From the IMG/VR virus record IMGVR_UViG_3300033405_000009: a stretch of DNA of 16,043 nucleotides. One strand, written 5' to 3'. This DNA comes from a virus. Every line of letters starts with the position of its first letter. The stretch's first letter is position 1. A program made the translations under genes and the position numbers. Positions 1,064 to 14,446 of this stretch are shown here, piece after piece. The notes beneath the pieces were generated by a model. That model was not told the origin of the DNA and made no database searches. It was given only the letters and a program-made list of their open reading frames with translations.

Positions 1064-1078
1064 TTCCTCCGCGGTCGG

Positions 1079-1104: not shown

Positions 1105-1110
1105 ACGCGT

Positions 1111-2015: not shown

Positions 2016-2410
2016 ACTTTCGGTACGCGCGCGAGCGCCGCATCTGCGGCTTTCTTGGCATCATGTTCATCTGGGCAAACACCTGATTCAATGGCTAGTC
2101 CGACCTCAGATCCCCAGACTCTCCAAGCCCAACCTTCTGGGTTTTTCCAAACCACCGCAGCAAGATTCCTAGAATCGCCAAAATAACAACGATCCCAAAA
2201 ATTCAACTCTTCATCGTGAGCCCATGGACCCGGCCTCCCATCGGAAGTGTCCACAATCTTAATTTGTACGTCTTCCGGAACTGTAACACTAGCTTCAACA
2301 GGTTGAGCCTGACGGGTCTTAGCCTCTCTCTTAGCTGCAGCTCGAGCTTTGAGCGATGCAGAAATTTTGGCAAGAGTTTCTGCGCTATGAACTACCTTCT
2401 TTTCTGACAC
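2012..2410 (-). CDS. YegP/DUF1508-like protein with a Lys/Ala-rich N-terminal tail (132 aa, GTG start).
   Basis: The C-terminal NLAAVVWKNPEGWAWRVWGSEVGLAIESGVCPDEHDAKKAADAAL matches the YegP repeat pattern (gewRwRL-a-NGeiia-SegY-sk-a-kaI). The N-terminus KKVVHSAETLAKISASLKARAAAKREAKTRQ is a basic A/K-rich tail. Confidence 0.4.
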   Translation of the reverse strand: MSEKKVVHSAETLAKISASLKARAAAKREAKTRQAQPVEASVTVPEDVQIKIVDTSDGRPGPWAHDEELNFWDRCYFGDSRNLAAVVWKNPEGWAWRVWGSEVGLAIESGVCPDEHDAKKAADAALARVPKV

Positions 2411-2500
2411 TCTCTGGCACCCTTCACATCTCCATTACATTCTGCACCATTGGCTCGTTAAACACTTCCATTACTCGTTCAGGTGGACATTTCAGGTCCA

Positions 2501-2866
2501 TCAACTTTCCAAAACGGACTTTACGAGCGCCTCATCCAGGATTTTTTGCATCTCATCCGGAGTGCGAATATGAATCAAGGCCTCGAAAAGATATGATGCC
2601 GTCGTATCTTCTTTGAAAGAGCGACCCTTCCCAAAAATGAAAATCTTCTTCCGAGGAGAATGTTTCTTAAAACGCCACTTATCGATTACGGATGAGACGA
2701 GAGGATAAGGAGTCCCCGGTTGACAACGAAAATCCGGCCAAATGGAAAGAGCTTCCCAAATAGCGAGATCATTAATTTGCATGCCAATGACGCTAGTATG
2801 CGAAATGTGAGCCGTCAACTGCTCCACTTTAGTGGAGAGTGTACCGAATAGAGAATCTTTCTTCAT
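2501..2866 (-). CDS. Hypothetical protein (121 aa)
   Basis: ORF in a coupled minus-strand array. It overlaps the upstream gene by 4 nt and ends in the C-terminal motif ...VLES. Confidence 0.45.
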   Translation of the reverse strand: MKKDSLFGTLSTKVEQLTAHISHTSVIGMQINDLAIWEALSIWPDFRCQPGTPYPLVSSVIDKWRFKKHSPRKKIFIFGKGRSFKEDTTASYLFEALIHIRTPDEMQKILDEALVKSVLES

Positions 2867-3186
2867 TCCTCCATCACTAGCTTTACAATCGCGTTGTCAG
2901 TGATATTTTTCATTTCCGTGCGCGTGCGAATGTATGCAACAGTCTGCATTCGTACTTTGTGCACGAACAGGAAGAGCGTAAATCCTCGCGCGTCGTCCGG
3001 TTTGCATCGCCACATGTCTACTACATCGGAGATGAAATACTTCGAATGCCCGTCTCTCATGCGCTGATTGTCTTGCGAGGTGACAAGCACAGTCCACAGT
3101 GCTTCATCAGTCACATCGACACCGACAATCCGAGCCTTCGGCAACCTGCGACGAAACTCCGCCACTCTGTCAGATACGAAACTCAT
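2863..3186 (-). CDS. Hypothetical protein (~107 aa; ATG at 3184-3186, 1-nt TGATG overlap with the upstream stop).
   Basis: ORF in the coupled array. TTGATGAGT lies at the junction. Confidence 0.45.
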   Translation of the reverse strand: MSFVSDRVAEFRRRLPKARIVGVDVTDEALWTVLVTSQDNQRMRDGHSKYFISDVVDMWRCKPDDARGFTLFLFVHKVRMQTVAYIRTRTEMKNITDNAIVKLVMEE

Positions 3187-3734
3187 CAAGCCACCATGAC
3201 ACCTTCAACTAGGATGAGATCCATCATTTCGATGATCTCATCTCGAGTTACGCCGTTTTCAAATGCCGATTTCAATGCCGGTTGAATGATGTCAAGCGCC
3301 ATCTTCCTTCCATGGGCGCGCTGCTTCTTCTCCGGTTCACCTCGATTGATGTAATCCACCAACTGATCATGAAATTTCTTCCCAGCCCCATTACTGATGA
3401 TTGCCTCGAAAATGGCGTGTCCGTATCCAACTTGACCCTTCAATTTCGCTTGGAGTTCTTCGGTTCCATGCTTCTGGAAGGCATGCATGAGTTTACTATC
3501 ATAGTCGTACCAGGTACGACTATCCATGATCTCATATACTGGAAGACGCAATTCGAGCTTAGGTTCAAACGGAGGAGTTGGATCGCCTTCAAGCACGAGT
3601 CTCACCAGAATCGAAGAGCCCGTCTTATTAACAGGTCTAATACTTTTGATTGAATATCGTGCAATGGCTGCATCCACCCGTCGATACTCGGGTGTTGCCA
3701 AGATCTTGGCTCTCCATTCTGCATCCGAAAGCAT
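3186..3734 (-). CDS. Hypothetical protein (~182 aa; ATG at 3732-3734).
   Basis: GGAGGATTGATG provides a strong SD 5 nt before the ATG. The SD spans the upstream stop. Confidence 0.5.
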   Translation of the reverse strand: MLSDAEWRAKILATPEYRRVDAAIARYSIKSIRPVNKTGSSILVRLVLEGDPTPPFEPKLELRLPVYEIMDSRTWYDYDSKLMHAFQKHGTEELQAKLKGQVGYGHAIFEAIISNGAGKKFHDQLVDYINRGEPEKKQRAHGRKMALDIIQPALKSAFENGVTRDEIIEMMDLILVEGVMVA

Positions 3735-3744
3735 CAATCCTCCG

Positions 3745-4095
3745 TCATGAGTTTAGGACAGATTCCACGATAGCTCGATTCAGGCGCTCTTCGAGTGCGG
3801 CATGCGGACCGATATGGATGGTTACATATCCACGCGAACGATCTCGAAAGGCAAACAGAGTCAGAGGGACCGCGTTTTTGTGTGCCTTCACATTGCGCCG
3901 GTCCCAAATCTTGCGAAGTTCCACAACGCTGGAAGCACTAACGGATTCATCCCGGCGGAGAACATTCCACACAGGAGAATCTACGTTCCAGACTTTGCAA
4001 TTCTTGGTAACATGACGGCGAAGAGTGTCCTCCAGCAATCCGATATTCTTCACTCGATCTAGGATTCCGGCAGAGTAATCCATACACCGACTCAT
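3745..4095 (-). CDS. Hypothetical protein (116 aa)
   Basis: ORF with an ATG start 1 nt after the upstream stop (TGAAATG). Confidence 0.45.
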   Translation of the reverse strand: MSRCMDYSAGILDRVKNIGLLEDTLRRHVTKNCKVWNVDSPVWNVLRRDESVSASSVVELRKIWDRRNVKAHKNAVPLTLFAFRDRSRGYVTIHIGPHAALEERLNRAIVESVLNS

Positions 4096-4096
4096 T

Positions 4097-4291
4097 TCAT
4101 GAGTTCATGATCATCCCAACCAGATACTCTTCCATGGAAATCGGTGACGGCCAACCCCAATTCCGATGCGGTGCGCACCTGCACAAATAAAGCCCGGCAA
4201 GGTAGTGGAACTGCACTTTTTCAGCACCACAAGGCTTCCCCCTGAGAGGACCGTGCTCGTAAATGTAATCACATTGGAATTTCTCAGGCAT
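4097..4291 (-). CDS. Small Cys-containing protein (~64 aa, MPEKFQCDYIYEHGPLRGKPCGAEKVQFHYLAGLYLCRCAPHRNWGW...). The ORF track's longer 128-aa version overlaps the VWA gene and the hairpin, so I trimmed it.
   Basis: ATG at 4289-4291 with a GGGTG SD-like sequence upstream. There are four Cys residues that could bind a metal. The 20-bp hairpin lies immediately upstream of it. Confidence 0.35.
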   Translation of the reverse strand: MPEKFQCDYIYEHGPLRGKPCGAEKVQFHYLAGLYLCRCAPHRNWGWPSPISMEEYLVGMIMNS

Positions 4292-4302
4292 GATCGCACC
4301 CG

Positions 4303-4347
4303 TGCAGTATATGGCAGGGATCATTGCGATCCCTGCCATATACTGCA
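4303..4347. promoter_or_regulatory. Perfect hairpin with a 20-bp stem and 5-nt loop (TGCAGTATATGGCAGGGATC-attgc-GATCCCTGCCATATACTGCA). It sits between the VWA gene stop (4353) and the next gene start (4291).
   Basis: Exact inverted repeat read directly from the sequence. No U-tract follows on either strand, so it is not a canonical intrinsic terminator. It could instead be an RNase III-type processing site, a protein operator or an attenuator. Confidence 0.6.
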
Positions 4348-4352
4348 GACTA

Positions 4353-5954
4353 CTAGAGCCTGCTGTTGCGGAGCGGAGCCACGCGCCCGAAGGAGGGCTT
4401 GTACTCCTTCGACTTGCGGGTGATGACCCACACCACGTCCATCCCAGAGGGCCTGAGCTTCTCGGGGACCACGCCGCAGTCACCGTCCGTGATGATGATC
4501 ACCACGTCGAACTCCTTCCCCAACTTCTCAGGGAACTCCGCGAAGAACTGATCGAAAACCGTGCCTCCGCGGCCGACGATCTTCGTCCGCTTGATGTCGC
4601 TCTTCTGCGTGACCCTCTGCACCTCGTCCCACTTCGGCGAGGCATCGCAGCAGACCAGATGACCCTCGGTGTTGTCTCCGAGGACCTGAAGTTGGGAAAG
4701 CCCATAACGCAGATCATCGTCGCTCATGGACCCGCTCGTGTCGATCATGGCAAGCCACCGAGGCATGTGGGTGTGCCGGCGAGGCAGGTACTGCTTGGGG
4801 GTGGCATTGAGCCACCGCCGCCGCAGACGCTTCCAATCGTTCTTCATGCCGGCGTCCTGCACCTTCCGCATGAGAGCGGACCGCACGATATCGGTGAACT
4901 TGAGGGTAGGCTTGTACAGCTCCCCGAGGACATCCTCGATGTCGCTGGGAACCGACCCACGCATCGTGACAGCAGCTTGCGCTGCTCTCATGACATCGCT
5001 CATCACCTCTTCCTTGGTGACGGCCGCCTGCATGTGGGCGTCCATAGACGACAAGGGATCGTGCGAGGAGCCGCACTTGGGGCAGCTGTGGTCTCCCGGG
5101 TCTCCGTGTCCATCCCCACACTGATGGGGACCTTGCCCTTGACCACCACCAGGCTGCTGCCCGTTCTGGCCCTGTCCTTGGCCCTGTCCAGGGCTCTGGC
5201 CCTTCTGACCAGGCTTCTGCCCCTTCCCACCCTGACCCTGCTGTCCCTGGCCCTGCTTCTTCGCCTTGCCGGTCTTGGGATCCATGGAGAGAGCGCCGCA
5301 CTGAGGACACTTGCGGGGGCTCTTGTCCCAATGCTTCATGATCTCTTCGTAGATGCTCTCGGGCGAGCGCCCGTGGAGCGTCTTATCCGCGAAGACGCGG
5401 GACTTGCCGTCATCGGGGATCTCCTGCTTGCCGTCGATGAAGGCGAGGAGCTCTGCGAAGGGGAGGGCCTCACCGAGCGCACCACCCCAGAGCTTGGGAC
5501 CCTTGAAGCCGGCCTTCTCACGCGAGATCTCGATCACCGCGTTGACAACGTAGTCGATGGCCCAGTTGAAGATCCGGGGGTTCATCCCGAGCCCACGCTG
5601 GCAATGGTAGAAGATGACGTGGTAACCTTCGTGCTCCATGACGACGGGAACCTCGTCGCCGTTGAGGCTCGCGAGGAAATCCGGATGCCAGTAGAACTTC
5701 TTGCCATCCGTGGCCGCCGTGGTGAACATCCCCTTCGGGTGCCCCGGCAACTCGTCGGCCAGCTCGTGCGGCTTCGGCGCCGTCAGCGCAAAGAGGAAGG
5801 GGTTACCACCGTTCGAAGGTTGGCGGTAGAGCCGCGTCATGCAATTGGTGATCTTGGTCTGAAGCTCCGCCAAGCGGGCGTTGTCGTAGGAGCCGTCCTC
5901 CTGCTTCAACACCATGCGCGGATCCTTGAGCCGTGCTCCGATCGTCGTCATCAT
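4353..5954 (-). CDS. VWA-domain protein with an N-terminal HExxH putative metallopeptidase domain (DUF2201/vWA-MoxR-associated type; CobT/ViaA-like partner of a MoxR ATPase), 533 aa.
   Basis: HEGYH zinc-peptidase motif near aa ~110. MIDAS motif DTSGSMSD and VVIIITDGD in the C-terminal VWA domain. Central split Zn-ribbon CPQCG...CPKCG. GC-rich, ATGATG start, and motif A with GGAGG upstream. Confidence 0.75.
   Translation of the reverse strand: MMTTIGARLKDPRMVLKQEDGSYDNARLAELQTKITNCMTRLYRQPSNGGNPFLFALTAPKPHELADELPGHPKGMFTTAATDGKKFYWHPDFLASLNGDEVPVVMEHEGYHVIFYHCQRGLGMNPRIFNWAIDYVVNAVIEISREKAGFKGPKLWGGALGEALPFAELLAFIDGKQEIPDDGKSRVFADKTLHGRSPESIYEEIMKHWDKSPRKCPQCGALSMDPKTGKAKKQGQGQQGQGGKGQKPGQKGQSPGQGQGQGQNGQQPGGGQGQGPHQCGDGHGDPGDHSCPKCGSSHDPLSSMDAHMQAAVTKEEVMSDVMRAAQAAVTMRGSVPSDIEDVLGELYKPTLKFTDIVRSALMRKVQDAGMKNDWKRLRRRWLNATPKQYLPRRHTHMPRWLAMIDTSGSMSDDDLRYGLSQLQVLGDNTEGHLVCCDASPKWDEVQRVTQKSDIKRTKIVGRGGTVFDQFFAEFPEKLGKEFDVVIIITDGDCGVVPEKLRPSGMDVVWVITRKSKEYKPSFGRVAPLRNSRL
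5100..5290. repeat. Low-complexity CTGGCCCTG-type simple repeat. It encodes a GQ/PGQ-rich linker (KKQGQGQQGQGGKGQKPGQKGQSPGQGQGQGQNGQQPGGGQGQGP) inside the VWA protein, between the two CxxCG halves.
   Basis: Imperfect tandem repeats are visible in the DNA and the protein. Confidence 0.6.
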
Positions 5955-5970
5955 TCACCTCCACACACCA

Positions 5971-5996
5971 ATACGCGCGCGATTGCGGAATTTACG
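5971..5996 (-). promoter_or_regulatory. Conserved promoter/leader motif, instance A: CGTAAATT-N12-GCGCGTATT-N7-GGAGG-N6-ATGATG.
   Basis: Plus strand shows ATACGCGCGCGATTGCGGAATTTACG. It lies upstream of the VWA gene start at 5954. Confidence 0.55.
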
Positions 5997-6012
5997 CGGC
6001 GAATGCGAGTTA

Positions 6013-6237
6013 TCAGCTTTCCAAAATTGCATTTACGATAATTTCCTCACAAGTGAGACGTACAACTTTACGAACATTCCAAGCATCCGTAGCAGGGGTT
6101 CTCAAATGAACTTCCATTTGCAAATCTACCGGCGGAAGCTCAGGATTCCAAGAGGAGGATTTACAATTGGAGCAAATCCACTCGGGCGGCAAAGGTTTGC
6201 CACCGGAAATGACCCCGCGCCGCCATACATGACCCAT
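6013..6237 (-). CDS. Hypothetical small protein (74 aa), ends ...ILES.
   Basis: ORF with an ATG start. It is the first gene of the AT-rich cassette downstream of motif A. Confidence 0.35.
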   Translation of the reverse strand: MGHVWRRGVISGGKPLPPEWICSNCKSSSWNPELPPVDLQMEVHLRTPATDAWNVRKVVRLTCEEIIVNAILES

Positions 6238-6272
6238 TGATCACAGTACGCTCAGCCACGCAGGATTTCTGC

Positions 6273-6707
6273 CTATTTCTCAATGGAGAAGGCCAACTTG
6301 AGTTTATCAAATTCAAACCATGGAGGTCTTCCTCGTTGATAGTTTATGAGTAAGGCTCCGGTTCTATATAAAATGAAAACGCGAGCATGCTCTTGTGGAT
6401 TAGCGAACCACTCAGCGAACTTCCTATTCTTGTAAGAATCTCCGATCTGTGGACCTAAGAGGTCAATGTATTCCTTTGACATAGCAAAAACTTTAACGGA
6501 TGCTTTACCGTTCCATCCCATTGAACGTGCCAATCGTACTTCTTCATCATCCATATCCGGAGGAATAGCAACTACCACGGCTCCCATGCTTGTTAATCGT
6601 AGGATTCGTGTCTCATTAGGGAGAATGACGTTGCGCATGATGATGTCAATCACCTTCTGGCGCTCTTCATCATTATCCATCAAACTTGCGGGTTTGTATT
6701 CGTGCAT
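6273..6707 (-). CDS. Hypothetical protein (~144 aa; ATG at 6705-6707, TGATG overlap).
   Basis: AT-rich ORF, translationally coupled to the upstream gene. Confidence 0.45.
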   Translation of the reverse strand: MHEYKPASLMDNDEERQKVIDIIMRNVILPNETRILRLTSMGAVVVAIPPDMDDEEVRLARSMGWNGKASVKVFAMSKEYIDLLGPQIGDSYKNRKFAEWFANPQEHARVFILYRTGALLINYQRGRPPWFEFDKLKLAFSIEK

Positions 6708-6910
6708 CACGATTCCATGATTTCAAAAATCAAGAATTCTTCATCGGTCAGTTTCTTCCATTTATTGCGATTATCATTCTCGGATAGCATCGCCATAACT
6801 GAGCTTGGATGACACTCTTCACAAAAGAGATCCATTACAACAAGATCGTTCTGATAGAAGTACTCGTATCCAAATGAGGCATCCTTCTCACATCGGTCAC
6901 ATTGAACCAT
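6707..6910 (-). CDS. Small Zn-ribbon-like protein (~67 aa; CDRCEK...CEECH).
   Basis: Two CxxC pairs. ATG at 6908-6910 overlaps the upstream stop as TGATG. Confidence 0.4.
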   Translation of the reverse strand: MVQCDRCEKDASFGYEYFYQNDLVVMDLFCEECHPSSVMAMLSENDNRNKWKKLTDEEFLIFEIMES

Positions 6911-7203
6911 CAATTCTCCATAGAACTACGTACGATTTCGAGATCACACTCTGTCTCATCATGGTGCAATTTCGCTGTAGACCAGTAGAAACCACCACAT
7001 CTTGAACATGTCTCCGGACTCGCTAATCTGGGAAGGGGTGAGAGTGATTTATATTCAGGATGAGGTGGCCCATACCAAATCACCCCAACCACGATTGCAA
7101 TTAATCCGGCGATGCAAAAGACGCCTCCGAAAATCGAACGTTCAGCCGCAGCCCATGCAATACCAAACAGGAAAATTGTGAACCAAACTGAAAGAATCTT
7201 CAT
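6910..7203 (-). CDS. Small membrane protein with two predicted TM helices (ILSVWFTIFLFGIAWAAA; IFGGVFCIAGLIAIVVGVIWY) and a Cys-containing soluble C-terminus. It may be holin-like.
   Basis: Hydrophobic segments with an ATG start. The start has a 4-nt ATGA overlap with the stop of the upstream gene 7200..7586. Confidence 0.45.
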   Translation of the reverse strand: MKILSVWFTIFLFGIAWAAAERSIFGGVFCIAGLIAIVVGVIWYGPPHPEYKSLSPLPRLASPETCSRCGGFYWSTAKLHHDETECDLEIVRSSMEN

Positions 7204-7586
7204 TTGGCGCCATTCCGAATCTTAAGCACTTCTGCATGAAGCACATCCAACGCGGCTCGCGTCCGACCAAGAAGAAGAGCATCGTCCGCTGGAACTACAA
7301 CTGCTACAATCAAACGACTTCGTTTCTTTTGACGAAACCGCTGGGCTTCCTTCGGTGAAGATTTTGATTGAAGATAGAGAGGACCGACATCAGTCTCTAC
7401 TACCACATCAATCCCACAAGCATCTTCCGCTTTAGTCGCTAGACGTACGCTCGTGATCCACGCACGACCCGTGTTCAATCCCTGCGCGCCGAGTGTGGCG
7501 AGGTTTTGTACCGCATCGACAAGCCGACGCTCTGAGACTTGACCGCGCTCATTTGAGACATGCCCGAGTAGTTTAGAGACTCTCAT
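7200..7586 (-). CDS. Hypothetical protein (128 aa). GIDVVVETDVGPLYLQSK may be a PD-(D/E)xK-like motif, which is weak evidence.
   Basis: ATGA overlap with the upstream gene. Confidence 0.4.
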   Translation of the reverse strand: MRVSKLLGHVSNERGQVSERRLVDAVQNLATLGAQGLNTGRAWITSVRLATKAEDACGIDVVVETDVGPLYLQSKSSPKEAQRFRQKKRSRLIVAVVVPADDALLLGRTRAALDVLHAEVLKIRNGAK

Positions 7587-7765
7587 GTATCCAGCACCGA
7601 GCGTACAATTTCAAGAGTTGGATCTTCCAAACAATCGGATTGGACCCATTCTCGCCAGTCAAAATAATATGGGCGAAGCCCATTCATTTCGGCTTTGCAC
7701 TTAGAGCAAACATATTCATAATCCAGGTCCAGTTCCAGAACTGGTTGCCAGTCGTGCGCTGTCAT
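7583..7765 (-). CDS. Small Cys-containing protein (~60 aa, MTAHDWQPVLELDLDYEYVCSKCKAEM...). The ORF track's TTG-extended start at 7816 is less likely.
   Basis: Internal ATG. The long structured non-coding region lies upstream. Confidence 0.35.
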   Translation of the reverse strand: MTAHDWQPVLELDLDYEYVCSKCKAEMNGLRPYYFDWREWVQSDCLEDPTLEIVRSVLDT

Positions 7766-8045
7766 CCGGATTGATTTTACAGACAGACGAGAAGCCCGAA
7801 GCCGGGACCATCCCAAGCTACGGGCTTCTCTGGAGGCAACGCCATGCCTGGCGCCGACCTTCTTAGGGCCAACAGGCCCGAAATTACGAGCGGGAAATTT
7901 ACCAGTGATCTCTAGACGCCTCCCGCTCTACTAGGCGACGCCGAATCTTTCGATTCGACCCTGGGGAACCTGTAACGACCCGAGAGACGCCGGGTGATCC
8001 CATTGGCTTGCCCATCGATCACCCGTACGCGCGCGATCGAGCGAT
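7766..8045 (-). other. Highly structured non-coding region. It is a candidate ncRNA or a long regulatory 5' leader, transcribed from the motif variant at 8011-8040.
   Basis: About 230-280 bp with no ORF. It holds several perfect inverted repeats: GAGAAGCCCG...CGGGCTTCTC (10 bp), GAGCGGGA...TCCCGCTC (8 bp), CGGGTGATC...GATCACCCG, GGGCCaacaGGCCC, and a CCGAATC-tttc-GATTCG hairpin (GAAA tetraloop on the minus strand). Confidence 0.35.
8011..8040 (-). promoter_or_regulatory. Variant of the conserved motif (TAGATC-N12-GCGTAC) with no coding gene directly downstream.
   Basis: Plus strand shows CCGTACGCGCGCGATCGAGCGATCTATG. It has the same 12-nt spacing and GCGTAC box as instance F. Confidence 0.35.
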
Positions 8046-8240
8046 CTATGTAGTCTTCTTTGGCAGCCGTCGTACATTTTTGCATTTAGTGACTAAGATC
8101 ACTGAATTCATCTTGTCAGCTTTCACAGAGCACTCATCTCCGGATATTTCCATTACTTCTCCAGTGAGACTGCGGTGAGGTCCGGTTCTAATGTGAACCT
8201 TATCAGACACTTTGATGGGGACAATTGCCATACGCGCCAT
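8046..8240 (-). CDS. Small KOW-like domain protein (64 aa).
   Basis: IVPIKVSDKVHIRTGPHRSLTGEVMEISGDECSVKADKMNSVILVTKCKNV follows the KOW pattern (G-D-V-V-i--GpF-g--G-V-ev-----v-V-----------V---vek) seen in NusG C-terminus/L24-type proteins. The start overlaps the 3' end of the HNH gene. Confidence 0.35.
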   Translation of the reverse strand: MARMAIVPIKVSDKVHIRTGPHRSLTGEVMEISGDECSVKADKMNSVILVTKCKNVRRLPKKTT

Positions 8241-9117
8241 ATGAAAAATTACAATTATGGCATAGAACTCGATAACCAGTCGGGAATTTATTCTTGATCA
8301 ACCATTTCTGGAAAACGTTGCCCCTCTTGTCGATTTCCTTGCGATGATCATTTCCTCCACCGTGGATGTGATCAATCGCGAGAACATCAGTATCTTTGAC
8401 GGCACAACATGCACAAGATGGAATGGGAGCGCTGTAGTGAACTAGACATTCCATCTTGATCTTGCAATCGTAGGCATACTTTGCAAGAGCCATCTTCTTC
8501 AAGTCGACGGGATATGGCACTCCCTCGATGATTCGAGTCTTAAACGAATTAGTCTCATCCCAAATCTTGTTTTCAAAGGCTTTGCGTTGAAGTCGCAAGG
8601 ATTCTTTGCCGTTACAATTATGGCAAAGGACTCGATAACCGGGCGGGAATCCGGATTTCTCGAGCCATAGCAAATATCGCTCGGTTTTGCGACCGAGGAA
8701 CTCACGATGGATGTTGCCTCCACCCGTGATGTGATCTAGGCAGAGGAAGCGGAGCTTCAACTCCTCACACAAGAAGCACTTCGGGATTCCACCAGAGTAA
8801 ACGCCATAAACGCGAACTCTGATGTCCTCACGCCTATCCTTCATCTGCGCGAGGACGTCTTCCTTATTCTCTGCGTAATATTTGGCGTTGTACGCAGAAG
8901 CCTTATCGGGATTGGCTAGCTTGAATTGGCGGGTCTTTTCTTGACTCGCCTTCGGGTCAGCTGCGTATCGCGCCGCCCGTGCATCCTTATCACACTGGAT
9001 GCACTTGTACGTATATACGTCACGACCTTTGTAGGTATATGCCTTATATCGACGGAATCCCTCATCTAGAGATTGGATCCCATGAATACGACAAGCCCGG
9101 GTCGGTGTGTTGGTCAT
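8203..9117 (-). CDS. HNH endonuclease with two tandem HNH/Zn-finger modules (304 aa).
   Basis: Two copies of C..C...DH(I)xGGGNxHR...FPxGYRVLCHNCN: CLDHITGGGNIHREF...RVLCHNCN and AIDHIHGGGNDHRKE...RVLCHNCN. The gene is AT-rich. It is a paralog of gene 12453..13115. Confidence 0.75.
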   Translation of the reverse strand: MTNTPTRACRIHGIQSLDEGFRRYKAYTYKGRDVYTYKCIQCDKDARAARYAADPKASQEKTRQFKLANPDKASAYNAKYYAENKEDVLAQMKDRREDIRVRVYGVYSGGIPKCFLCEELKLRFLCLDHITGGGNIHREFLGRKTERYLLWLEKSGFPPGYRVLCHNCNGKESLRLQRKAFENKIWDETNSFKTRIIEGVPYPVDLKKMALAKYAYDCKIKMECLVHYSAPIPSCACCAVKDTDVLAIDHIHGGGNDHRKEIDKRGNVFQKWLIKNKFPTGYRVLCHNCNFSYGAYGNCPHQSV

Positions 9118-9147
9118 GCTGAGAACCTAACACCAACCCGGGCTTGT
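9091..9147 (-). promoter_or_regulatory. Long imperfect hairpin that encloses the HNH start codon and SD (ACAAGCCCGGGT(T/C)GGTGTT...loop with AGGTTCTCAGCATGACC...AACACCGACCCGGGCTTGT).
   Basis: 12 perfect bp plus 5 more bp of stem seen in the sequence. The ATG at 9115-9117 lies in the loop. The hairpin sits 20 nt after the MoxR stop. Confidence 0.55.
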
Positions 9148-9168
9148 GGCAAGATTACTGAGTGTGGA

Positions 9169-10287
9169 TCACTCGTCCTTCATCGCCTGACGAATTTTGA
9201 GGAATGCCTCCATGAACGGGGCCACCTTCGTGAGCTTGTGGTCCTGAATCATCTTCATGTTCATGACGCTCTTCGCAGCACCGATGCAGAACTCCGAGGG
9301 GAGCTTGCGGAGCCACCCGAACACGTTGTCCGTGGTCTTGTGGAGCTTACGCTCGTGCGCCTCCTTGTCGGAGCCGGAGGGCGTCACGCGGCAGAGGGCC
9401 GCCACGGCGTTCACGGCGGAGATGGCGCAAACGAACTGGCGATCGATCTCCATCTTGTCGAGATCGGGGTGCTTGCCCTCGCGGACCAGCGCCTCGATGA
9501 GCGGCTCGATGTGGCGGTAGTGCTCCAGCCACACCTTGAACTTGACCGCGGAAGCCATCCCCACGCGACCCGCCACCAGCATCGTCTGGAAGTCGACACT
9601 GGAGAGGTGGCGCTCCGAGCCGTTGGTGAAGTCCAGGTCCTTCGCCGCCAAAGTCCACGCGCGAGGCGAGGGGTGGCAATACGCCGTGGAGTCGCCCTCG
9701 GGCGGGGGCATCAGGAGCTGCTCCTGATTCTTGCTGAGGAACCCGACGATGAGGGGGTTGACCCCTGCGCCCGTGGCCCACTCCTGCCACGGCTCGAAGG
9801 CGTGCGTCACGCGGTAGACGCCGCACCGATTGGTGAGGGCGTGCGAGACGGGGAGCGAGAAGGCACCCTCGTCAGGCAGGTTGCCCGTCGCGATGACCGC
9901 GTGGATGTTCATCTTGCGACCGTTCATCGCACGGAACTGGAACAGCTCGAGGCAGGGGTTCTGCAGCTCGGGCTTGGCCTTATCCACCTCGTCCACGAGG
10001 AGGATCACCGGCCGCTCGTCCTTGTTGTAGAGCGGGATGGTCTCCGGCGGAGCATAGGTCGTCTTGCCGTTCTCCACGAGAGGCAGACCGATCATGTCGG
10101 GTGCCTCCAGGACGGAGAGGTTGAGGTAGACGTAGCGAAACTTCTCGTTCTCGCACGCCTGCATGGCCATCTCGGTCTTGCCGATACCGGCCGGGCCGAA
10201 GGTCATGAGATTGCCCCCGGTCCGAATCGTGAACTGCAGCACCTTCATGAGGTGCGCCTGATCGAGCTCCGTAACACCAGTTAGCAT
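9169..10287 (-). CDS. MoxR-family (AAA_5) AAA+ ATPase, CobS/RavA-like (372 aa).
   Basis: Walker A FGPAGIGKTEMA. Walker B VILLVDEVDKA. Sensor-1-like HAVIATGN. The length and single-AAA architecture are typical of the MoxR/CobS class. GC-rich, with motif C and GGAGG upstream. Confidence 0.75.
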   Translation of the reverse strand: MLTGVTELDQAHLMKVLQFTIRTGGNLMTFGPAGIGKTEMAMQACENEKFRYVYLNLSVLEAPDMIGLPLVENGKTTYAPPETIPLYNKDERPVILLVDEVDKAKPELQNPCLELFQFRAMNGRKMNIHAVIATGNLPDEGAFSLPVSHALTNRCGVYRVTHAFEPWQEWATGAGVNPLIVGFLSKNQEQLLMPPPEGDSTAYCHPSPRAWTLAAKDLDFTNGSERHLSSVDFQTMLVAGRVGMASAVKFKVWLEHYRHIEPLIEALVREGKHPDLDKMEIDRQFVCAISAVNAVAALCRVTPSGSDKEAHERKLHKTTDNVFGWLRKLPSEFCIGAAKSVMNMKMIQDHKLTKVAPFMEAFLKIRQAMKDE

Positions 10288-10308: not shown

Positions 10309-10335
10309 AATACGCGCGGATTCGCCGAATTTGCG
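10309..10335 (-). promoter_or_regulatory. Conserved promoter/leader motif, instance C: CGCAAATT-N12-GCGCGTATT-N8-GGAGG-N9-ATG.
   Basis: Plus strand shows AATACGCGCGGATTCGCCGAATTTGCG. The dyad ATCCGC/GCGGAT flanks GCGTATT. Confidence 0.55.
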
Positions 10336-10385
10336 GATGCGGACCGCACCTTCTTCATGGGAATTGTACCGTACATCTTCACGAC

Positions 10386-10568
10386 TCACGACTCCATTAC
10401 CTTGGAAACAATTGCATCTTCACAAGTGGGATTGATTTTGAGCCAAGCTTGAGCCGAAGGACTCCAATTGTCACCATGCTTATTCCACTTGAGCCAGGAA
10501 TCGCACCAGCTACAGTGATAAGTCACCTGGTCATCCTGCGAGTATTGGTACCCCCAAGTATGTTCCAT
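10386..10568 (-). CDS. Small Cys/Trp-rich protein (~60 aa, MEHTWGYQYSQDDQVTYHCSWCDSW...), ends ...VMES.
   Basis: The ATG sits 1 nt after the upstream stop (ATGGAGTCCTGAGATGG). The SD is embedded in the upstream gene's last codons. Confidence 0.4.
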   Translation of the reverse strand: MEHTWGYQYSQDDQVTYHCSWCDSWLKWNKHGDNWSPSAQAWLKINPTCEDAIVSKVMES

Positions 10569-10569
10569 C

Positions 10570-10779
10570 TCAGGACTCCATAACCGTTGCCACAACGTGG
10601 GCTTTATGAAGTTCTCCAATTCGTTCAAACCAAGGTGAAATGTCCATCCCGCGACGGAAAGCGATGGCTCTCAATTTCTCAATATCTGCCGTAGTGGGAT
10701 TGGCTTCCATCTTTGAAATCAATTTCTCAAAAGCAGGAGTCTTCCAGTCCCGATCTTTAGGAGATCTCTGCCGGCTCAC
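10570..10779 (-). CDS. Hypothetical small protein (69 aa), ends ...VMES.
   Basis: ORF with an ATG start. Confidence 0.35.
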   Translation of the reverse strand: MSRQRSPKDRDWKTPAFEKLISKMEANPTTADIEKLRAIAFRRGMDISPWFERIGELHKAHVVATVMES

Positions 10780-10868
10780 GATTCGAGGACCTCTGCTACG
10801 AGAAATTCTGCGTGGGTGAAGGTTTCTACGGGGGTAGATGATTTATGCCGGAATTGGGAGCCGTCCAC

Positions 10869-11468
10869 CTAGTTCTCCATCAATGTGGCGACTTGTGCCT
10901 CTTTCAGGAGGTCTTGAATTTCCTCCATAGTCCATCCGCTTTGAATACGTTGAATGAACGTCTTGTAAAGACTCTTGCGTTGCTGAGCCTTTATACGATC
11001 TGCAGTCTCTTGGATGCGTCCTCGCATTTTACGCACCTGCGTTTTATTAGTGAACGCCGCTTTGCATGCATCCAGGACCGCATCATTCAATGCGCTGGCT
11101 TTCTTTGGCAAGACAGCCTGCACGATTTCTGCGAGATAATTCATGCGGGTGTCGTTCGTGCCTAGCGTCGACCCCATATAGTGGCGAACGACATGGAAGA
11201 CGCCTTGACTACCCAAAGCCACGATGATCGGATAATTCCGATTCCAGACCATCTTAGCCACGGCATACGGCTTTGTGCCCTCAAGACGCAATTCTGCGCC
11301 TTTCACCTTGCAGTGATGGACGTACCACGCAGCAGCTAGAAGGGCATTCTCGGTCCCTTCTGGGTCATGGTATCCCCGAATCGCATGAATCCATTTCGGT
11401 TGTCCTTGCAGAACCCTAGCCAGCCGCCTTCGAAACATCTTTTCGAAGAAAGCCTCAGCTTTGAGCAT
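10869..11468 (-). CDS. Hypothetical protein (~199 aa; ATG at 11466-11468, 2 nt after the upstream TGA, with a GGAGAG SD inside the upstream ...LES codons).
   Basis: TTGGAGAGTTGAACATG lies at the junction. Confidence 0.45.
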   Translation of the reverse strand: MLKAEAFFEKMFRRRLARVLQGQPKWIHAIRGYHDPEGTENALLAAAWYVHHCKVKGAELRLEGTKPYAVAKMVWNRNYPIIVALGSQGVFHVVRHYMGSTLGTNDTRMNYLAEIVQAVLPKKASALNDAVLDACKAAFTNKTQVRKMRGRIQETADRIKAQQRKSLYKTFIQRIQSGWTMEEIQDLLKEAQVATLMEN

Positions 11469-11470
11469 GT

Positions 11471-11683
11471 TCAACTCTCCAAGATTTGGAACACGACAGC
11501 TTCTGGATTAGAAAGAACATCTTCGTATATATACAGATACTCCGGTTCCGGTTGATGCTTCTTGCATCTATGACACCAATTCCCTCGAAATTTCAAGTGG
11601 ATGACCGGTGGATTAGTACAGAAATGCTTCTCATCGTTGATGATGGCATCGCACAGTGCCCAGTTCCAACACGACTGAACCAC
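11471..11683 (-). CDS. Small Cys/His-rich (Zn-binding-like) protein (70 aa).
   Basis: Contains C..C...C..HRCKKH. It abuts the stop of gene 11683..12351. Confidence 0.4.
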   Translation of the reverse strand: MVQSCWNWALCDAIINDEKHFCTNPPVIHLKFRGNWCHRCKKHQPEPEYLYIYEDVLSNPEAVVFQILES

Positions 11684-12351
11684 TATGACTCCAAAACGTC
11701 AGCCACGGCGAATTCGCGCAGAGCCTCGCGCAGTACGTCATCTCCGAGAAAGGAGAACTTGCAGAGGACTTCCCGTACGTCGCGCATGCAGAAGTTAACG
11801 AGAGCCGACTTCTTCTCGGCCTCGAAGGCCTCATTGACCTCGAAACCTGGGTTGTACATAACAGCCCAGGCCTCCTCGTTCAGCCGCTTTTCGGCTGCGA
11901 GCCTATCTTCCTTGAAGATTTCATCGACGTGATTACGTCCCCAGCTGGAGAAAGACTGAGCATCCTTGCGACCGCGCTGCTTCTTCTTGTCCACGGACGT
12001 GCCGAAGACCGTCTCCGGTTGGCAGTTGAATGTGGGGACACCGCCCTCCTTACCGAAGTGCTTCTTGGCGATGATATCGAAGTCTGCATCCTCCGCGAGC
12101 CGCCACGTGCTGAGATGGCAGTTGCCGTTCGTCCCACCTCGGTTGAAGGTGGCCTCCGGATGGAAATTGGTGTGGAAGACGACGCTTGCATAAGGACGCA
12201 TCGGATTACCGCGTTCGTCGTGGGTCTTCAGCTCGAAGGTGTGGCGTGTGATGCGCGCATTCTCGTACTTGGCACGGATTGAAGCGAGCAGCTCCTTACC
12301 TTCCGCCGTGTCGAGGAGAAGCTTGTAAATCCTATCGTAACTCGATGCCAT
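11683..12351 (-). CDS. Hypothetical protein (~222 aa, starts MASSYDRIYK). GC-rich. The ORF track's N-terminal extension to 12411 is rejected because motif D and GGAGG sit right before the internal ATG.
   Basis: CATATG at the start, with GGAGG 8 nt upstream. It contains HxD...H-like residues (KTHDE...FHTNFH), but I cannot assign a family. Confidence 0.5.
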   Translation of the reverse strand: MASSYDRIYKLLLDTAEGKELLASIRAKYENARITRHTFELKTHDERGNPMRPYASVVFHTNFHPEATFNRGGTNGNCHLSTWRLAEDADFDIIAKKHFGKEGGVPTFNCQPETVFGTSVDKKKQRGRKDAQSFSSWGRNHVDEIFKEDRLAAEKRLNEEAWAVMYNPGFEVNEAFEAEKKSALVNFCMRDVREVLCKFSFLGDDVLREALREFAVADVLES

Positions 12352-12371
12352 ATGACAACCTCCGCGATCGA

Positions 12372-12396
12372 ATACGCGCCGATCCGCGAGATTTTT
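12372..12396 (-). promoter_or_regulatory. Conserved promoter/leader motif, instance D: AAAATC-N12-GCGCGTATT-N8-GGAGG-N8-ATG.
   Basis: Plus strand shows AATACGCGCCGATCCGCGAGATTTT. It lies in a divergent intergenic region that also feeds the plus-strand HNH gene. Confidence 0.5.
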
Positions 12397-12452
12397 GCCC
12401 GATCTATTCAATTGTACAGATCGGTTAGAACTCTAGTACGGATTACAAAGAG

Positions 12453-13115
12453 ATGAAGTTCAAAAGATGTTCCAGATGCCGTAAGAAAAAACAAATCAAG
12501 GGCAATTTCACAATTCACAGGAAAAATCATGATGGATTGAGTGCATGTTGCAAAGATTGCAATAAGACCCGTGTTCGAATTCTAAGAGCCAAGAACCCGA
12601 ATGAACACAAGGAAGCCTCAAGGCTTTCTCGGTTAAGACGGAAGCTTCGAGTAATGACTCACTACTGTGGTGGAAAACCTCCCGAATGCGCGTGTTGCGG
12701 TGAGAAAATATTGGAATTTCTCACCATGGATCATATCAACAATGATGGAAATCAGCATCGTAGGAAAATTCCCAGAAATGAATGGGGAAGGATGGTAGGT
12801 TGGCTGGAAAAACATAATTTCCCGCCCGGATTCCAGGTTCTCTGCTGGAACTGCAATTGCGGTAAGAGCCATGATGGGATCTGTCCACATGTTAAATCCG
12901 TTTCTCTTTCATCCTTACAGAAACCAGATCCTGCTACCGCAGGACTTAAACAGCGTGAACGGAAATTAGTACAAAACGGGACCCACTATCTCTGCAAGAT
13001 TCACGGACCTGTGCTATTGAGAGATTGTTATGTGCGACTTGAAAAGCGACGAAATTATTCGAGTTATCGATGCAAAGAATGTGTTCGAATTCATAACAGT
13101 CACAGATACTCTTGA
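12453..13115 (+). CDS. HNH endonuclease, single module plus a C-terminal Cys-rich extension (220 aa). It is a paralog of gene 8203..9117.
   Basis: CACCGEKILEFLTMDHINNDGNQHRRK...FPPGFQVLCWNCNCGKSHDGICPHVKSV parallels the AIDHIHGGGNDHRKE...FPTGYRVLCHNCNFSYGAYGNCPHQSV block of the 304-aa protein. Its C-terminal CKIHGP...YRCKECVRIH resembles the N-terminal CRIHGI...YKCIQCDKD of the 304-aa protein. Confidence 0.7.
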   Translation: MKFKRCSRCRKKKQIKGNFTIHRKNHDGLSACCKDCNKTRVRILRAKNPNEHKEASRLSRLRRKLRVMTHYCGGKPPECACCGEKILEFLTMDHINNDGNQHRRKIPRNEWGRMVGWLEKHNFPPGFQVLCWNCNCGKSHDGICPHVKSVSLSSLQKPDPATAGLKQRERKLVQNGTHYLCKIHGPVLLRDCYVRLEKRRNYSSYRCKECVRIHNSHRYS

Positions 13116-13157
13116 TTTGTGCTCGGTTGTCGGATTGTCTTGATTGTAGTTTCATTC

Positions 13158-13526
13158 ATGAGCCATTCATCAAATCGATTTTCGCAAGATACTCACATGG
13201 AGCTCTTGCCTGAAGCAGATTCAGTCGTACGCCAGTTCATTGCATGCGTCATGGATGCCGCAGGACTCAAGAGAGAGGCTGCATATATCAGGAAACTTCC
13301 TCCTGTTCAGTGTCAACAGTCACTCGTCCAAGCGGCGCGTACACTCGCACGTGCGAGATCAAAAGGTGCAAAGCCAGGCCCGTGGAAACAGATTGTCGAA
13401 GATACTCTCTTCTTCGGTTCGGCTGCGCTCTGGGCAGCTCTTCAAGGGAATCAAGCTTCCTTCGACACCCATACTCAACGAATGAAGGCTTCACTCGTAA
13501 CAGCTCCTGAGCGGCTTCTCCACTAA
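13158..13526 (+). CDS. Hypothetical protein. The start is uncertain: the ORF track gives GTG at 13119, and internal ATGs lie at 13158 and 13197.
   Basis: Protein-like composition (AAYIRKLPPVQCQQSLVQAARTLARARSKGAKPGPWKQIVEDTLFFGSAALWAALQGN), but there is no clear SD. Confidence 0.3.
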   Translation: MSHSSNRFSQDTHMELLPEADSVVRQFIACVMDAAGLKREAAYIRKLPPVQCQQSLVQAARTLARARSKGAKPGPWKQIVEDTLFFGSAALWAALQGNQASFDTHTQRMKASLVTAPERLLH

Positions 13527-14375: not shown

Positions 14376-14393
14376 TCGACACCTCCGCGATCA

Positions 14394-14419: not shown

Positions 14420-14446
14420 TCGATTCGCTGAGTGTAGAATGGGCTC

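Follow-up and report, generated by a model that had tools for sequence, protein, structure and literature searches.

Does the alternation of GC-rich genes and low-GC gene blocks in a phage genome record the invasion of a GC-rich backbone by AT-rich foreign DNA? This question is raised by the window studied here, i.e., the whole analyzed stretch of 16,043 nucleotides from the virus record IMGVR_UViG_3300033405_000009. An earlier note had read it as mobile-element or moron-style insertion into a GC-rich backbone, possibly driven by homing endonucleases, with acquisition of the GC-rich genes as the alternative. Nine huge-phage contigs from IMG/VR (180-459 kb) served as relatives, and composition was sampled over ~26 kb of the window's own phage and ~50 kb of a 436-kb relative.

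Two gene classes that differ at synonymous sites

The compositional mosaic described in the earlier note is genuine. The GC content of 300-nt windows ranged from 0.41 to 0.69, with a standard deviation of 0.065 compared to 0.028 in shuffled sequences (z = 15.9), and the switches in composition fell at gene boundaries. The conserved genes are as follows, the first six forming the GC-rich class.

1-580, minus strand: GC-rich gene cut by the window edge (GC3 0.77; 205 amino acids in L001)
659-1063, minus strand: BRCT-domain gene, conserved anchor (GC3 0.84; Pfam BRCT, E = 2.2e-8)
4353-5954, minus strand: DUF2201 gene, conserved anchor (GC3 0.82; Pfam DUF2201_N, E = 3e-22, and DUF2201, E = 5.5e-11)
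9169-10287, minus strand: MoxR-like AAA+ ATPase gene, conserved anchor (GC3 0.89; Pfam AAA_5; phrog_1297, E = 4.7e-42)
11683-12351, minus strand: conserved GC-rich gene with a C-terminal tail (GC3 0.72)
13755-14375, minus strand: conserved, marginally GC-rich gene with a tail (GC3 0.62)
13197-13526, plus strand: conserved low-GC3 gene (GC3 0.45)
15854-16036, minus strand: 3' part of a conserved gene (GC3 0.61; 46-49% amino acid identity in L003 and L007)

The six GC-rich genes had a GC content of 0.527-0.632 (pooled, 0.599) and GC3 values of 0.62-0.89, compared to 0.34-0.61 for the remaining 25 ORFs, a complete separation (Mann-Whitney, p = 1.4e-6). The proposed clustering by codon usage gave the same result, since unsupervised k-means recovered both classes, gene 1-580 aside. 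The preference for G/C-ending codons ascribed to the GC-rich genes thus holds for all six, with 13755-14375 (GC 0.527) as a marginal member, whereas the GC content of about 40% ascribed to the intervening blocks was too low (45.6-48.8%; pooled, 47.8%). The contrast between GC-rich genes and low-GC ORFs resides almost wholly in third codon positions (GC1,.594 versus.552; GC2,.409 versus.407; GC3,.795 versus.471) and is a synonymous-site effect. Third positions are nearly uniform in the low-GC class (A.23, C.23, G.24, T.30) and dominated by C (.40) and G (.37) in the GC-rich class, and C over T and G over A are both enriched in the ATPase and DUF2201 orthologues of the relatives.

The sampled loci do not support a GC-rich backbone. 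GC3-rich genes are a minority of about 8 of the 36 called genes in the 26 kb of the window's own phage, the low-GC class is the majority composition at every locus sampled, and in the 436-kb relative, a helicase encoded away from this region has a GC3 of only 0.46. Conservation alone does not confer a high GC3, as is evident from the conserved gene 13197-13526.

Conserved anchors and variable spacers

The order of the ATPase, DUF2201, and BRCT genes, 11683-12351, and 13755-14375 is the same in the relatives, and the ATPase and DUF2201 genes are present and syntenic in nine of nine. The BRCT protein shares 60-61% of its amino acids with those of L003 and L007, and the DUF2201 protein shares 34-69% across all relatives. 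The latter is predicted to combine an HExxH metallopeptidase-like domain with a VWA domain carrying a DxSxS MIDAS motif, and H107, E108, and H111 as well as D404, S406, and S408 are invariant in the alignment. Just 3' of its stop codon lies a perfect palindromic hairpin (4303-4347), which is terminator-like but lacks a T-run. The ATPase resembles N4 gp24, and the two genes are reminiscent of the gp24/gp25-like pair of a MoxR ATPase and a VWA protein in Schitoviridae, in which the VWA partner is likewise encoded downstream on the same strand and, in LUZ7, the pair is also interrupted by a small ORF. However, the similarity is very distant (25% identity to the gp24-like protein of LUZ7), the partner in the window has an additional HExxH DUF2201_N domain, and the genes are split by 3.2 kb of unrelated genes.

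The spacer between the ATPase and DUF2201 genes varies from 5 nt to 3.8 kb across loci, e.g., 5 nt in L013, 226 nt in L014, and 3,214 nt in the window. When the ~25 low-GC ORFs were compared with the nine relatives, 13197-13526 was alone in having a clear homologue; apart from this, there were a few weak matches. Empty sites, which the earlier note had suggested looking for, were found for 12453-13115 and 14447-15794: both are absent from the nearest relatives L003 and L006/L007, in which the flanks are 100-300 nt apart. Syntenic anchors, variable spacers, and empty sites together support variable insertion between conserved genes, in line with the expectation that the blocks vary while the GC-rich genes are retained.

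The orthologues of the ATPase and DUF2201 genes are the top GC3 outliers among ~40 neighbors in genomes of 38-60% GC (.72/.67 versus a neighbor median of.41 in L010,.81/.71 versus.38 in L011, and.92/.84 versus.55 in L007), the excess being small in L012 and L013, the relatives with the highest AT content. With amino acid identities of 34-73%, their synonymous sites are saturated, so that a GC3 excess stemming from an old acquisition would probably have decayed.

Small genes of the low-GC blocks

The low-GC blocks and the parts of the focal block distal to its nuclease gene are listed below.

1111-4324, minus strand: block of ~10 small translationally coupled genes (GC 0.48), with tandem paralogues at 2501-2866 and 2863-3189
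6013-7816, minus strand: six small genes that make up the distal portion of the focal block
6013-6237, minus strand: small gene with a tail (..AILES)
6273-6710, minus strand: strict ORFan
6707-6913, minus strand: small gene with a Zn-ribbon and a tail (..EIMES)
6910-7203, minus strand: small gene with a hydrophobic product
7200-7586, minus strand: small gene of a widespread uncharacterized family (402 clusters)
7583-7816, minus strand: small gene with a tail (..SVLDT)
7766-8050, minus strand: gene-free, GC-richer patch (about 0.57 GC)
10386-11683, minus strand: block of four or five genes without an HNH gene (GC 0.49)
14447-15794, mixed strands: two plus-strand genes (14447-14944 and 14947-15249) and a minus-strand HNH gene (15288-15794)

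The chaining of low-GC ORFs by ATGA/TGATG-type overlaps was confirmed at seven junctions. None of the six small genes in 6013-7816 has a homologue in the nine relatives, and neither flanking repeats nor tRNA genes were detected at the block junctions. The patch at 7766-8050 folds better than shuffled controls, had no Rfam or tRNA match, and is a candidate structured RNA.

About a third of the window's proteins share a previously undescribed C-terminal "VMES" tail. This lineage-specific tail is present on at least seven low-GC ORFs, including 2501-2866 in the first block and 10386-10628, 10570-10779, and 11471-11683 in the block 10386-11683, and on two GC-rich core genes (..ADVLES in 11683-12351 and ..CSIMES in 13755-14375). 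The ORFs that carry the tail of core genes therefore belong to this phage lineage, which speaks against a foreign origin of the blocks. Purely by analogy, the tail may be likened to encapsulin cargo-loading peptides, which are also short conserved C-terminal peptides on otherwise unrelated proteins; it differs from them in sequence and has no known shell partner.

Free-standing HNH-superfamily genes

Three of the five low-GC blocks harbor an HNH gene, as had been noted. These assignments are based on PHROGs and motif inspection; a Pfam search at E <= 0.01 detected no HNH domain in the three genes.

8203-9117, minus strand: free-standing nuclease gene with two tandem EndoVII/DHHRN-type HNH domains (CFLC114...DHIT128...CHNCN165 and CACC235...DHIH249...CHNCN286)
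12453-13115, plus strand: free-standing EndoVII/DHHRN-type HNH gene (phrog_1035, E = 1.8e-10; CACC79...DHIN93...CWNCN131)
15288-15794, minus strand: classical HNH endonuclease gene (phrog_3106, E = 1.5e-26; CGRC89, HHR104, CANC137)

The first gene contains a 363-nt internal repeat, begins 51 nt past the ATPase stop codon, and lacks a promoter-like motif of its own; the second occupies a divergent intergenic region. Both show the EndoVII/DHHRN-type pattern CX2C ... DH ... R ... CX2C-N, match a PHROG with the annotation "endonuclease VII," and stand alone beside conserved genes. They have no associated intron, one has the tandem two-domain architecture, the second His of DHDH is kept in one of three domains (DHIH; the others are DHIT and DHIN), and nuclease activity is predicted from these motifs. 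The catalytic cores of the HNH genes are 35-50% identical to those in phages of many unrelated hosts, and homologues in L008, L009, L010, and L011 occupy different positions, so movement by homing appears plausible; among strain-level variants, no recent gain or loss of an HNH gene was seen (L034 and L035 are a single nucleotide apart). A driving role of homing endonucleases in the insertions is not borne out, since of the 10 kb of low-GC DNA the HNH genes make up about 2.1 kb, two blocks contain none, and no link to the other ORFs was found.

In T4, free-standing endonuclease genes lie between conserved genes, many of them as promoterless cassettes using upstream promoters (PMC2988022). T4-like phages also share the conserved gene order with variable small genes in between (PMC2988022, PMC2993671), and their seg/mob homing endonucleases are likewise intergenic, sporadic, and mostly devoid of their own promoter. 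In contrast to T4-like phages, the gene classes in the window are also split by a GC3 gap of about 0.3 across a lineage of 38% to 60% GC, each anchor has a lineage-specific promoter-like motif, homing is putative, and one endonuclease has two tandem catalytic domains.

A promoter-like motif and signals of expression

The arrangement CGTAAATT-N10-GCGCGTAT-N7/8-GGAGG-N4-8-ATG (minus strand) precedes each of the six GC-rich genes, as the earlier note had stated.

598-625, minus strand: upstream of 1-580
1078-1105, minus strand: upstream of the BRCT gene
5970-5997, minus strand: strongest copy (PWM 36.5), leading into GGAGGTG and then the start codon of the DUF2201 gene
10309-10336, minus strand: upstream of the ATPase gene
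12371-12398, minus strand: upstream of 11683-12351
about 14393-14421, minus strand: upstream of 13755-14375, with a spacer one nucleotide shorter than the others
6245-6272: weak copy in a low-GC block, directly upstream of 6013-6237
2022-2049: weak copy in a low-GC block, upstream of the GTG of 1608-2015
8024-8051: weak or degenerate copy preceding the patch 7766-8050

The claim that the intervening blocks lack the motif holds for full-strength copies, but not for the last three. Promoter or terminator signals of their own did not exceed chance in the low-GC blocks, which speaks against moron-style insertion. The exact pattern has two matches in all of IMG/VR, both in relatives, and 14 of 15 matches in the 436-kb contig fall inside one region of ~37 kb; the motif is confined to this lineage and, there, to a single module. 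From its position and geometry, we infer that it acts as a promoter from which transcription continues into the low-GC genes downstream.

In four loci, motif-led genes exceeded the remaining ORFs in GC3 (p = 6e-6, 4e-3, 3e-4, and 4e-4), some motif-led genes reaching just 0.50-0.57. In the window's own phage, GC3 correlated with the length of the Shine-Dalgarno sequence (rho =.47, p =.004), with the score of the motif (rho =.41, p =.012), and with the amino acid identity that the proteins share with those of the nearest relatives (rho =.71, p =.0098, n = 12). Codon bias linked to expression and conservation in prokaryotes and phages (e.g., PMC7374057) likewise concerns synonymous sites only and is more pronounced in conserved genes and in those with strong translation signals. 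The bias in the window differs in being a general G/C-ending shift that lasts in orthologues within AT-rich genomes.

Origin of the mosaic

The contrast sits at synonymous sites, gene by gene across the lineage, and is therefore one of codon usage and probably not the trace that AT-rich imports would leave in a GC-rich backbone. Repeated invasion by AT-rich cassettes is improbable, even though the blocks vary between conserved anchors, three contain HNH genes, two HNH-bearing blocks have clean empty sites, and the widespread family of 7200-7586 is compatible with import from elsewhere. The majority status of the low-GC composition at the loci sampled, the small share of HNH genes, the core-gene tail, the lack of promoter and terminator signals above chance, and junctions without repeats or tRNA genes all argue against it. 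Very improbable is an acquisition of the GC-rich genes, e.g., of a MoxR-VWA operon from a GC-rich bacterium that is still drifting toward phage composition. MoxR-VWA pairs are common bacterial operons and the GC-rich genes are compositional outliers, but this alternative is refuted by their conservation and synteny in the relatives. Moreover, the pair also occurs in N4-like phages, the identities of ATPase and DUF2201 drop broadly in parallel, the excess persists even at 44% GC despite saturated synonymous sites, and the same bias and motif are found on the unrelated BRCT, ligase, and 11683-12351 genes.

Unlikely, though conceivable, is GC-biased gene conversion, by which only genes common to coinfecting relatives would recombine homologously, also when HNH-induced breaks are repaired and the flanking sequence is co-converted. 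This would push the synonymous sites of the shared genes toward G/C and leave unique accessory genes to reach mutational equilibrium by drift. To our knowledge, GC-biased conversion has not been demonstrated in phages, and it does not predict that GC3 tracks Shine-Dalgarno strength and motif presence. The low GC3 of 13197-13526 and of the helicase and the coincidence of transitions with gene boundaries also disagree with it. In its favor, third-position G and C are both raised in all amino acid classes, GC3 scales with conservation and hence with the opportunity for recombination, HNH genes adjoin the most GC3-rich genes, and flank co-conversion is a documented consequence of homing (PMC2988022). 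The G/C shift being a general one, the same pattern would also arise from GC-biased gene conversion or from selection acting on the composition of DNA or RNA.

In the probable arrangement, codon-biased lead genes come first and accessory genes devoid of a promoter come after them, with free-standing endonucleases of the homing type in addition; the GC3 excess may reflect selection on codon usage linked to expression. The window would belong to a module of DNA-metabolism genes in the genome of an uncultivated huge phage. This module would be composed of short units, each opening with the promoter-like motif, which keeps a constant spacing to a strong Shine-Dalgarno sequence. A conserved lead gene would follow (the MoxR-type ATPase, DUF2201 peptidase/VWA protein, or BRCT protein; DNA ligase in relatives), with almost all of its codons ending in G or C. 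Small genes without their own promoter, often translationally coupled and with nearly unbiased third positions, would lie after and among these anchors and turn over fast among relatives, and the three HNH-superfamily genes would fill intergenic sites beside conserved genes like the seg/mob genes of T4. The overall core/accessory layout is fairly ordinary. The two sides of the mosaic may be genes that evolve slowly and carry strong expression signals, and genes that evolve fast and carry weak ones.

Composition and gene content

The overall GC content of the window is 52.0% (16,043 bp), and its composition is bimodal: 300-nt windows range from 0.41 to 0.69 GC, with a standard deviation of 0.065 versus 0.028 in shuffled sequence (z = 15.9). 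The six GC-rich genes named in the earlier note (1-580, 659-1063, 4353-5954, 9169-10287, 11683-12351, and 13755-14375) have GC contents of 0.527 to 0.632 (pooled, 0.599), and the five intervening blocks (1111-4291, 6013-9117, 10386-11683, 12453-13526, and 14447-15794) have 0.456 to 0.488 (pooled, 0.478). The sharp mosaic described there is thus real, but the intervening blocks contain about 48% GC and not "about 40%." The contrast lies almost entirely at the third codon position, with pooled GC1/GC2/GC3 values of.594/.409/.795 for the GC-rich class versus.552/.407/.471 for the 25 other ORFs. The classes are fully separated by GC at third codon positions (GC3; p = 1.4e-6), and both are recovered by k-means clustering on codon usage, with gene 1-580 out of frame in that run. 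Third-position bases are near uniform in the low-GC class (A.23, C.23, G.24, T.30) and dominated by C (.40) and G (.37) in the GC-rich class. Chaining of the low-GC ORFs was also correctly described, seven of their junctions being ATGA/TGATG overlaps.

Genes of the window with an assigned family
659-1063, BRCT protein
4353-5954, DUF2201 protein with invariant HExxH and DxSxS MIDAS motifs
8203-9117 (minus), nuclease with two tandem EndoVII-type domains (363-nt internal repeat and similarity to 12453-13115)
9169-10287, MoxR-like AAA_5 ATPase (AAA_5, E = 3e-6; phrog_1297, E = 4.7e-42; distantly like N4 gp24)
12453-13115, EndoVII-type nuclease (phrog_1035, E = 1.8e-10)
15288-15794, classical HNH endonuclease (phrog_3106 HNH, E = 1.5e-26)

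A megablast search with the entire window as the query gave no match among cultured phages. The MoxR ATPase is encoded together with a MIDAS-VWA partner, the DUF2201 protein, whose VWA-like domain has an invariant D404-x-S406-x-S408 motif; the two genes are adjacent in two relatives (L013 and L014) and 3.2 kb apart in the window, and a small ORF likewise lies between the gp24-like and gp25-like genes of LUZ7, an N4-like phage. The DUF2201 metallopeptidase/VWA protein is matched by phrog_1314 (E = 5.9e-59), which yet carries the annotation "HNH endonuclease." This label looks like a misannotation and could distort automatic counts of HNH genes.

Conserved anchors and variable blocks among relatives

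The same phage was found in several metagenomes at 99.9 to 100% identity (L001, L002, and L034 to L036). Every contig with the exact ATPase or DUF2201 sequence belonged to it, and no strain-level variants showing recent gain or loss of an HNH gene were found; a single nucleotide distinguishes L034 from L035, whose differing gene calls are due to different gene callers. According to the amino acid identity of DUF2201 and ATPase, the nearest relatives are locus L003 (69 to 72%) and a 436-kb IMG/VR viral contig, IMGVR_UViG_3300032782_000001 (L006, L007, L022, and L030; 63 to 73%), and further relatives are viral contigs of 180 to 459 kb with a local GC content of 38 to 60%.

The ATPase and DUF2201 genes are present in all relatives, and the BRCT gene and the ORFs at 11683-12351, 13755-14375, 13197-13526, and 15854-16036 recur in several of them with their order kept. 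Almost none of the other low-GC ORFs had any match in searches against the relatives, and in the block 6013-9168 similarity was confined to the HNH-superfamily gene. The spacer between the ATPase and DUF2201 genes measures 5 nt in L013, 226 nt in L014, 995 nt in L003, at most 3,788 nt in the relative L008, and 3,214 nt in the window. The earlier note had advised a search for empty sites, and these exist: L003 and L006/L007 lack both the nuclease gene 12453-13115 and the block 14447-15794, and there the flanking genes lie 100 to 300 nt apart. The gene comparison therefore upholds the picture of variable low-GC blocks, some with HNH genes, between conserved GC-rich genes.

GC-rich genes as the compositional outliers

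The compositional outliers are the GC-rich genes. Whatever the local GC content, the ATPase and DUF2201 orthologues of each relative rank at or near the top in GC3 when compared with some 40 neighboring ORFs. These values were taken from in-frame tblastn segments and motif-anchored ORFs, longest-ORF calling being unsuitable since it picks antisense shadow ORFs within GC-rich genes.

GC3 of the ATPase and DUF2201 genes and median GC3 of neighboring ORFs in five relatives
L003: ATPase,.87; DUF2201,.81; neighbor median,.54
L007: ATPase,.92; DUF2201,.84; neighbor median,.55
L010: ATPase,.72; DUF2201,.67; neighbor median,.41
L011: ATPase,.81; DUF2201,.71; neighbor median,.38
L012: ATPase,.47; DUF2201,.38; neighbor median,.32

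In the 26 kb available for this phage, GC3-rich genes number only about 8 of 36 called; most genes of the sampled DNA fall in the low-GC3 class, so the GC-rich backbone assumed in the earlier note is not supported. Elsewhere on the 436-kb relative, an SF2 helicase of 546 aa has a GC3 of 0.46. The converse proposal, that the GC-rich genes are the acquired ones, is refuted by the presence of ATPase and DUF2201 orthologues in all relatives and by the persistence of the excess at saturated synonymous sites: at 34 to 73% amino acid identity such sites are saturated, and we infer that the excess is kept up genome by genome rather than left over from an old acquisition. The low-GC blocks are not supported as a horizontally acquired genomic island either, given their majority composition in the DNA sampled and the lack of a tRNA gene and of flanking repeats; scans of the window found no tRNA gene, no Rfam family, and no group I intron, which argues against a tRNA-linked island and against an intron. 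A moron-type architecture is equally unsupported, because promoters of the sigma-70 type (7 found versus 11.3 expected by shuffling) and sites resembling intrinsic terminators (16 versus 14.2) are not enriched in the window, and the copies of the promoter-like motif in the blocks are weak. Nor do the data support HNH genes as the drivers of all insertions.

We favor expression-linked codon selection as the cause of the GC3 excess. The bias is restricted to synonymous positions and follows both conservation and expression signals, with Shine-Dalgarno (SD) length and motif score as the expression proxies: GC3 rises with SD length (rho,.47) and motif score (rho,.41) as well as with amino acid identity to the closest relatives (rho,.71; n = 12), and motif-led genes exceed the other ORFs in four loci (p, 6e-6 to 4e-3). 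The main rival is GC-biased conversion acting in only those genes that are able to recombine, which would likewise raise GC3; C over T and G over A are both enriched.

Promoter-like motif and other putative regulatory signals

On the minus strand, every GC-rich gene is preceded by the arrangement CGTAAATT-N10-GCGCGTAT-N7/8-GGAGG(TG)-N4-8-ATG. The two-box motif thus stands before each of these genes as claimed, but the low-GC blocks are not free of it: a position weight matrix detected weaker copies at 6245-6272 (just 5' of the gene 6013-6237), 2022-2049 (5' of 1608-2015), and 8024-8051. The motif is specific to this lineage; its exact 18-base pattern has two matches across all of IMG/VR, both in relatives, and a second motif pattern has 15 matches in the 436-kb relative, 14 of them within a single stretch of about 37 kb.

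Several copies of the motif in relatives (L003 around 6781 and 1401, L022 around 7206, and L007 around 20087) have CACCTCC in the spacer between the boxes. Because this heptamer is complementary to the downstream GGAGGTG, the SD could be masked in read-through transcripts and left unmasked in those begun at the motif. Another locus of the 436-kb relative (L028, outside the motif-rich module) encodes at 4448-5983 (minus) a 511-aa protein that has a KOW motif and weakly matches Sigma70_r4, next to an SF2 helicase gene; it is a candidate phage transcription factor that might read the motif. Directly 3' of the DUF2201 stop codon lies a perfect 45-nt palindrome (4303-4347), which has weak, symmetric matches on both strands to an Rfam miRNA model and is probably a hairpin, lacking a T-run, that acts in termination or processing.

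HNH-superfamily nucleases

None of the three nucleases was detected by Pfam at E <= 0.01, so that their assignment had to draw on PHROGs and motif inspection; these support the nucleases 8203-9117, 12453-13115, and 15288-15794 and hence the claim of three HNH-bearing low-GC blocks. Both domains of 8203-9117 are 42 to 48% identical to that of 12453-13115, and the 363-nt DNA repeat within the gene is seen at 8249-8287 and 8612-8650. Endonucleases with the DHHRN/EndoVII motif have an N-terminal CX2-4C, a central DH(D)H, a conserved Arg, and a C-terminal CX2C followed by Asn, the second His being conserved in most members and not in all (PMC6083498). The CX2C...DH...R...CX2C-N signature of this DHHRN/F-CphI family (PMC6083498) is present in 12453-13115 (CACC79-DHIN93-HR-CWNCN131) and in domains 1 (CFLC114-DHIT128-HR-CHNCN165) and 2 (CACC235-DHIH249-HR-CHNCN286) of 8203-9117, but only one of the three domains has the second His (DHIH249).

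Matches to PHROGs and domain identity place all three proteins in homing endonuclease families. Their genes are intergenic, lie between intact conserved flanking genes outside introns and inteins, and occur sporadically among relatives, with empty sites; a homologue of 8203-9117 occupies the same site in L010 and other sites in L008, L009, and L011. The catalytic cores of the HNH genes are 35 to 50% identical in phages of many unrelated hosts. In phage T4, the seg and mob genes are free-standing homing-type endonuclease genes adjoining conserved genes (PMC2988022), and in the best model the nucleases of the window are candidate endonucleases of this kind. The tandem catalytic domains of 8203-9117 are unusual for a free-standing homing-type endonuclease.

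Heterogeneous content of the low-GC DNA

The low-GC DNA is heterogeneous in content. At one extreme, 6273-6707 is a strict ORFan with no homologue among 5.8 billion proteins. The 128-aa product of 7200-7586 (minus) belongs to a widespread family whose members are about 120 aa long (402 clusters at E <= 1e-3; best match, 57% identity), some homologues being fusions to longer proteins; it had no Pfam or PHROG match, and Pfam scans and cluster names of the homologues gave no function. The ORFs 2501-2866 and 2863-3189 are tandem paralogues.

Within the block 6013-9168, a patch at 7766-8050 (minus) is gene free and richer in GC. It is preceded by the degenerate motif copy 8024-8051, after which no GGAGG-ATG follows. 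The patch folds with a z score of -5.1 relative to dinucleotide shuffles, was matched by no Rfam model, and has no conserved counterpart in relatives. Its interpretation as a uniquely structured RNA was rejected, because 3 other windows of 56 fold about equally well compared with shuffles; a small RNA driven by the motif, or a gene start that has decayed, could account for it.

A C-terminal tail shared by unrelated proteins

Nine ORFs of the window, seven low-GC ORFs and two GC-rich core genes, end in a common tail with the consensus E(-10)-x-x-[VI](-7)-x-x-[VI](-4)-[ML]-[ED]-[ST]-COOH, e.g., ..EIMES, ..AILES, and ..KVMES.

Tail-bearing ORFs of the window (all minus)
13755-14375
11683-12351
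11471-11683
10570-10779
10386-10628
7583-7816
6707-6913
6013-6237
2501-2866

About one-third of the module's proteins end in the tail, with 75 nonredundant instances, and comparison of the protein bodies in a set of 67 instances gave 63 unrelated families. Observed counts far exceed expectation in the window (9 versus 0.21), in L001 of the same phage (16 versus 0.33), and in L007 (13 versus 0.21), and the tail recurs in the relatives' loci L003, L022, L030, L025, L008 to L012, and L014. As a control, viral loci that are distant or unrelated, about 190 kb in all, yielded one loose match and no strict match. An artifact of SD or ATGA junctions at the nucleotide level was considered and rejected: Ser in the tail draws on TCN as well as AGY codons, Val on its full set of four, and for Glu, GAG and GAA are used equally with or without an adjacent downstream start (Fisher p = 0.51). 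These mixed synonymous codons indicate conservation at the protein level.

The tail is lacking in the ATPase, DUF2201, and BRCT proteins, in all three HNH-superfamily nucleases, and in the two blocks with clean empty sites. It thereby validates small ORFs as genes, assigns many of them to this phage lineage, and sets them apart from the mobile HNH cassettes. Among the small tail-bearing proteins, several (6707-6913, 6013-6237, 7583-7816, 10386-10628, and 11471-11683) have one or two CxxC pairs; these look like putative Zn ribbons, although no similarity is detectable among their sequences.

Nothing relevant on a similar C-terminal motif in huge phages emerged from a search of the literature. 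It is conceivable, if somewhat short of probable, that the tail is a new sorting or docking signal of this huge-phage lineage that sends many unrelated small proteins to one common partner, the module being a factory of tagged effectors and the low-GC blocks its fast-evolving cargo genes. Candidate partners are the capsid or another compartment, or the module's pair of MoxR ATPase and MIDAS-VWA/HExxH peptidase.

Implications

Overall, the mosaic observation is confirmed with corrections, and its interpretation as HNH-bearing insertions into a GC-rich backbone is partly supported. In the model that best fits the data, conserved lead genes with strong expression signals would keep their G/C-ending codons, promoterless accessory genes would turn over behind them, and homing-type endonucleases may settle beside the conserved genes, as seg and mob do. 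Conserved anchors, variable small genes, and free-standing homing-type endonucleases are a familiar layout of large phages, i.e., a known organization in a new instance. The window serves as a warning: a sharp GC contrast can stem from gene classes that differ in codon usage and is not in itself a sign of foreign DNA; without the relatives, the wrong class would have been taken as inserted and the backbone composition misjudged. Beyond the ordinary is the GC3 excess of the same orthologues in genomes of 38% to 60% GC, tied to a lineage-specific motif, and its persistence provides a clean natural system for weighing selection against biased conversion at synonymous sites of phages. The C-terminal tail was an unexpected by-product and is most worth following up; should it prove to serve in targeting, the sorting of proteins by uncultivated huge phages would become directly testable.
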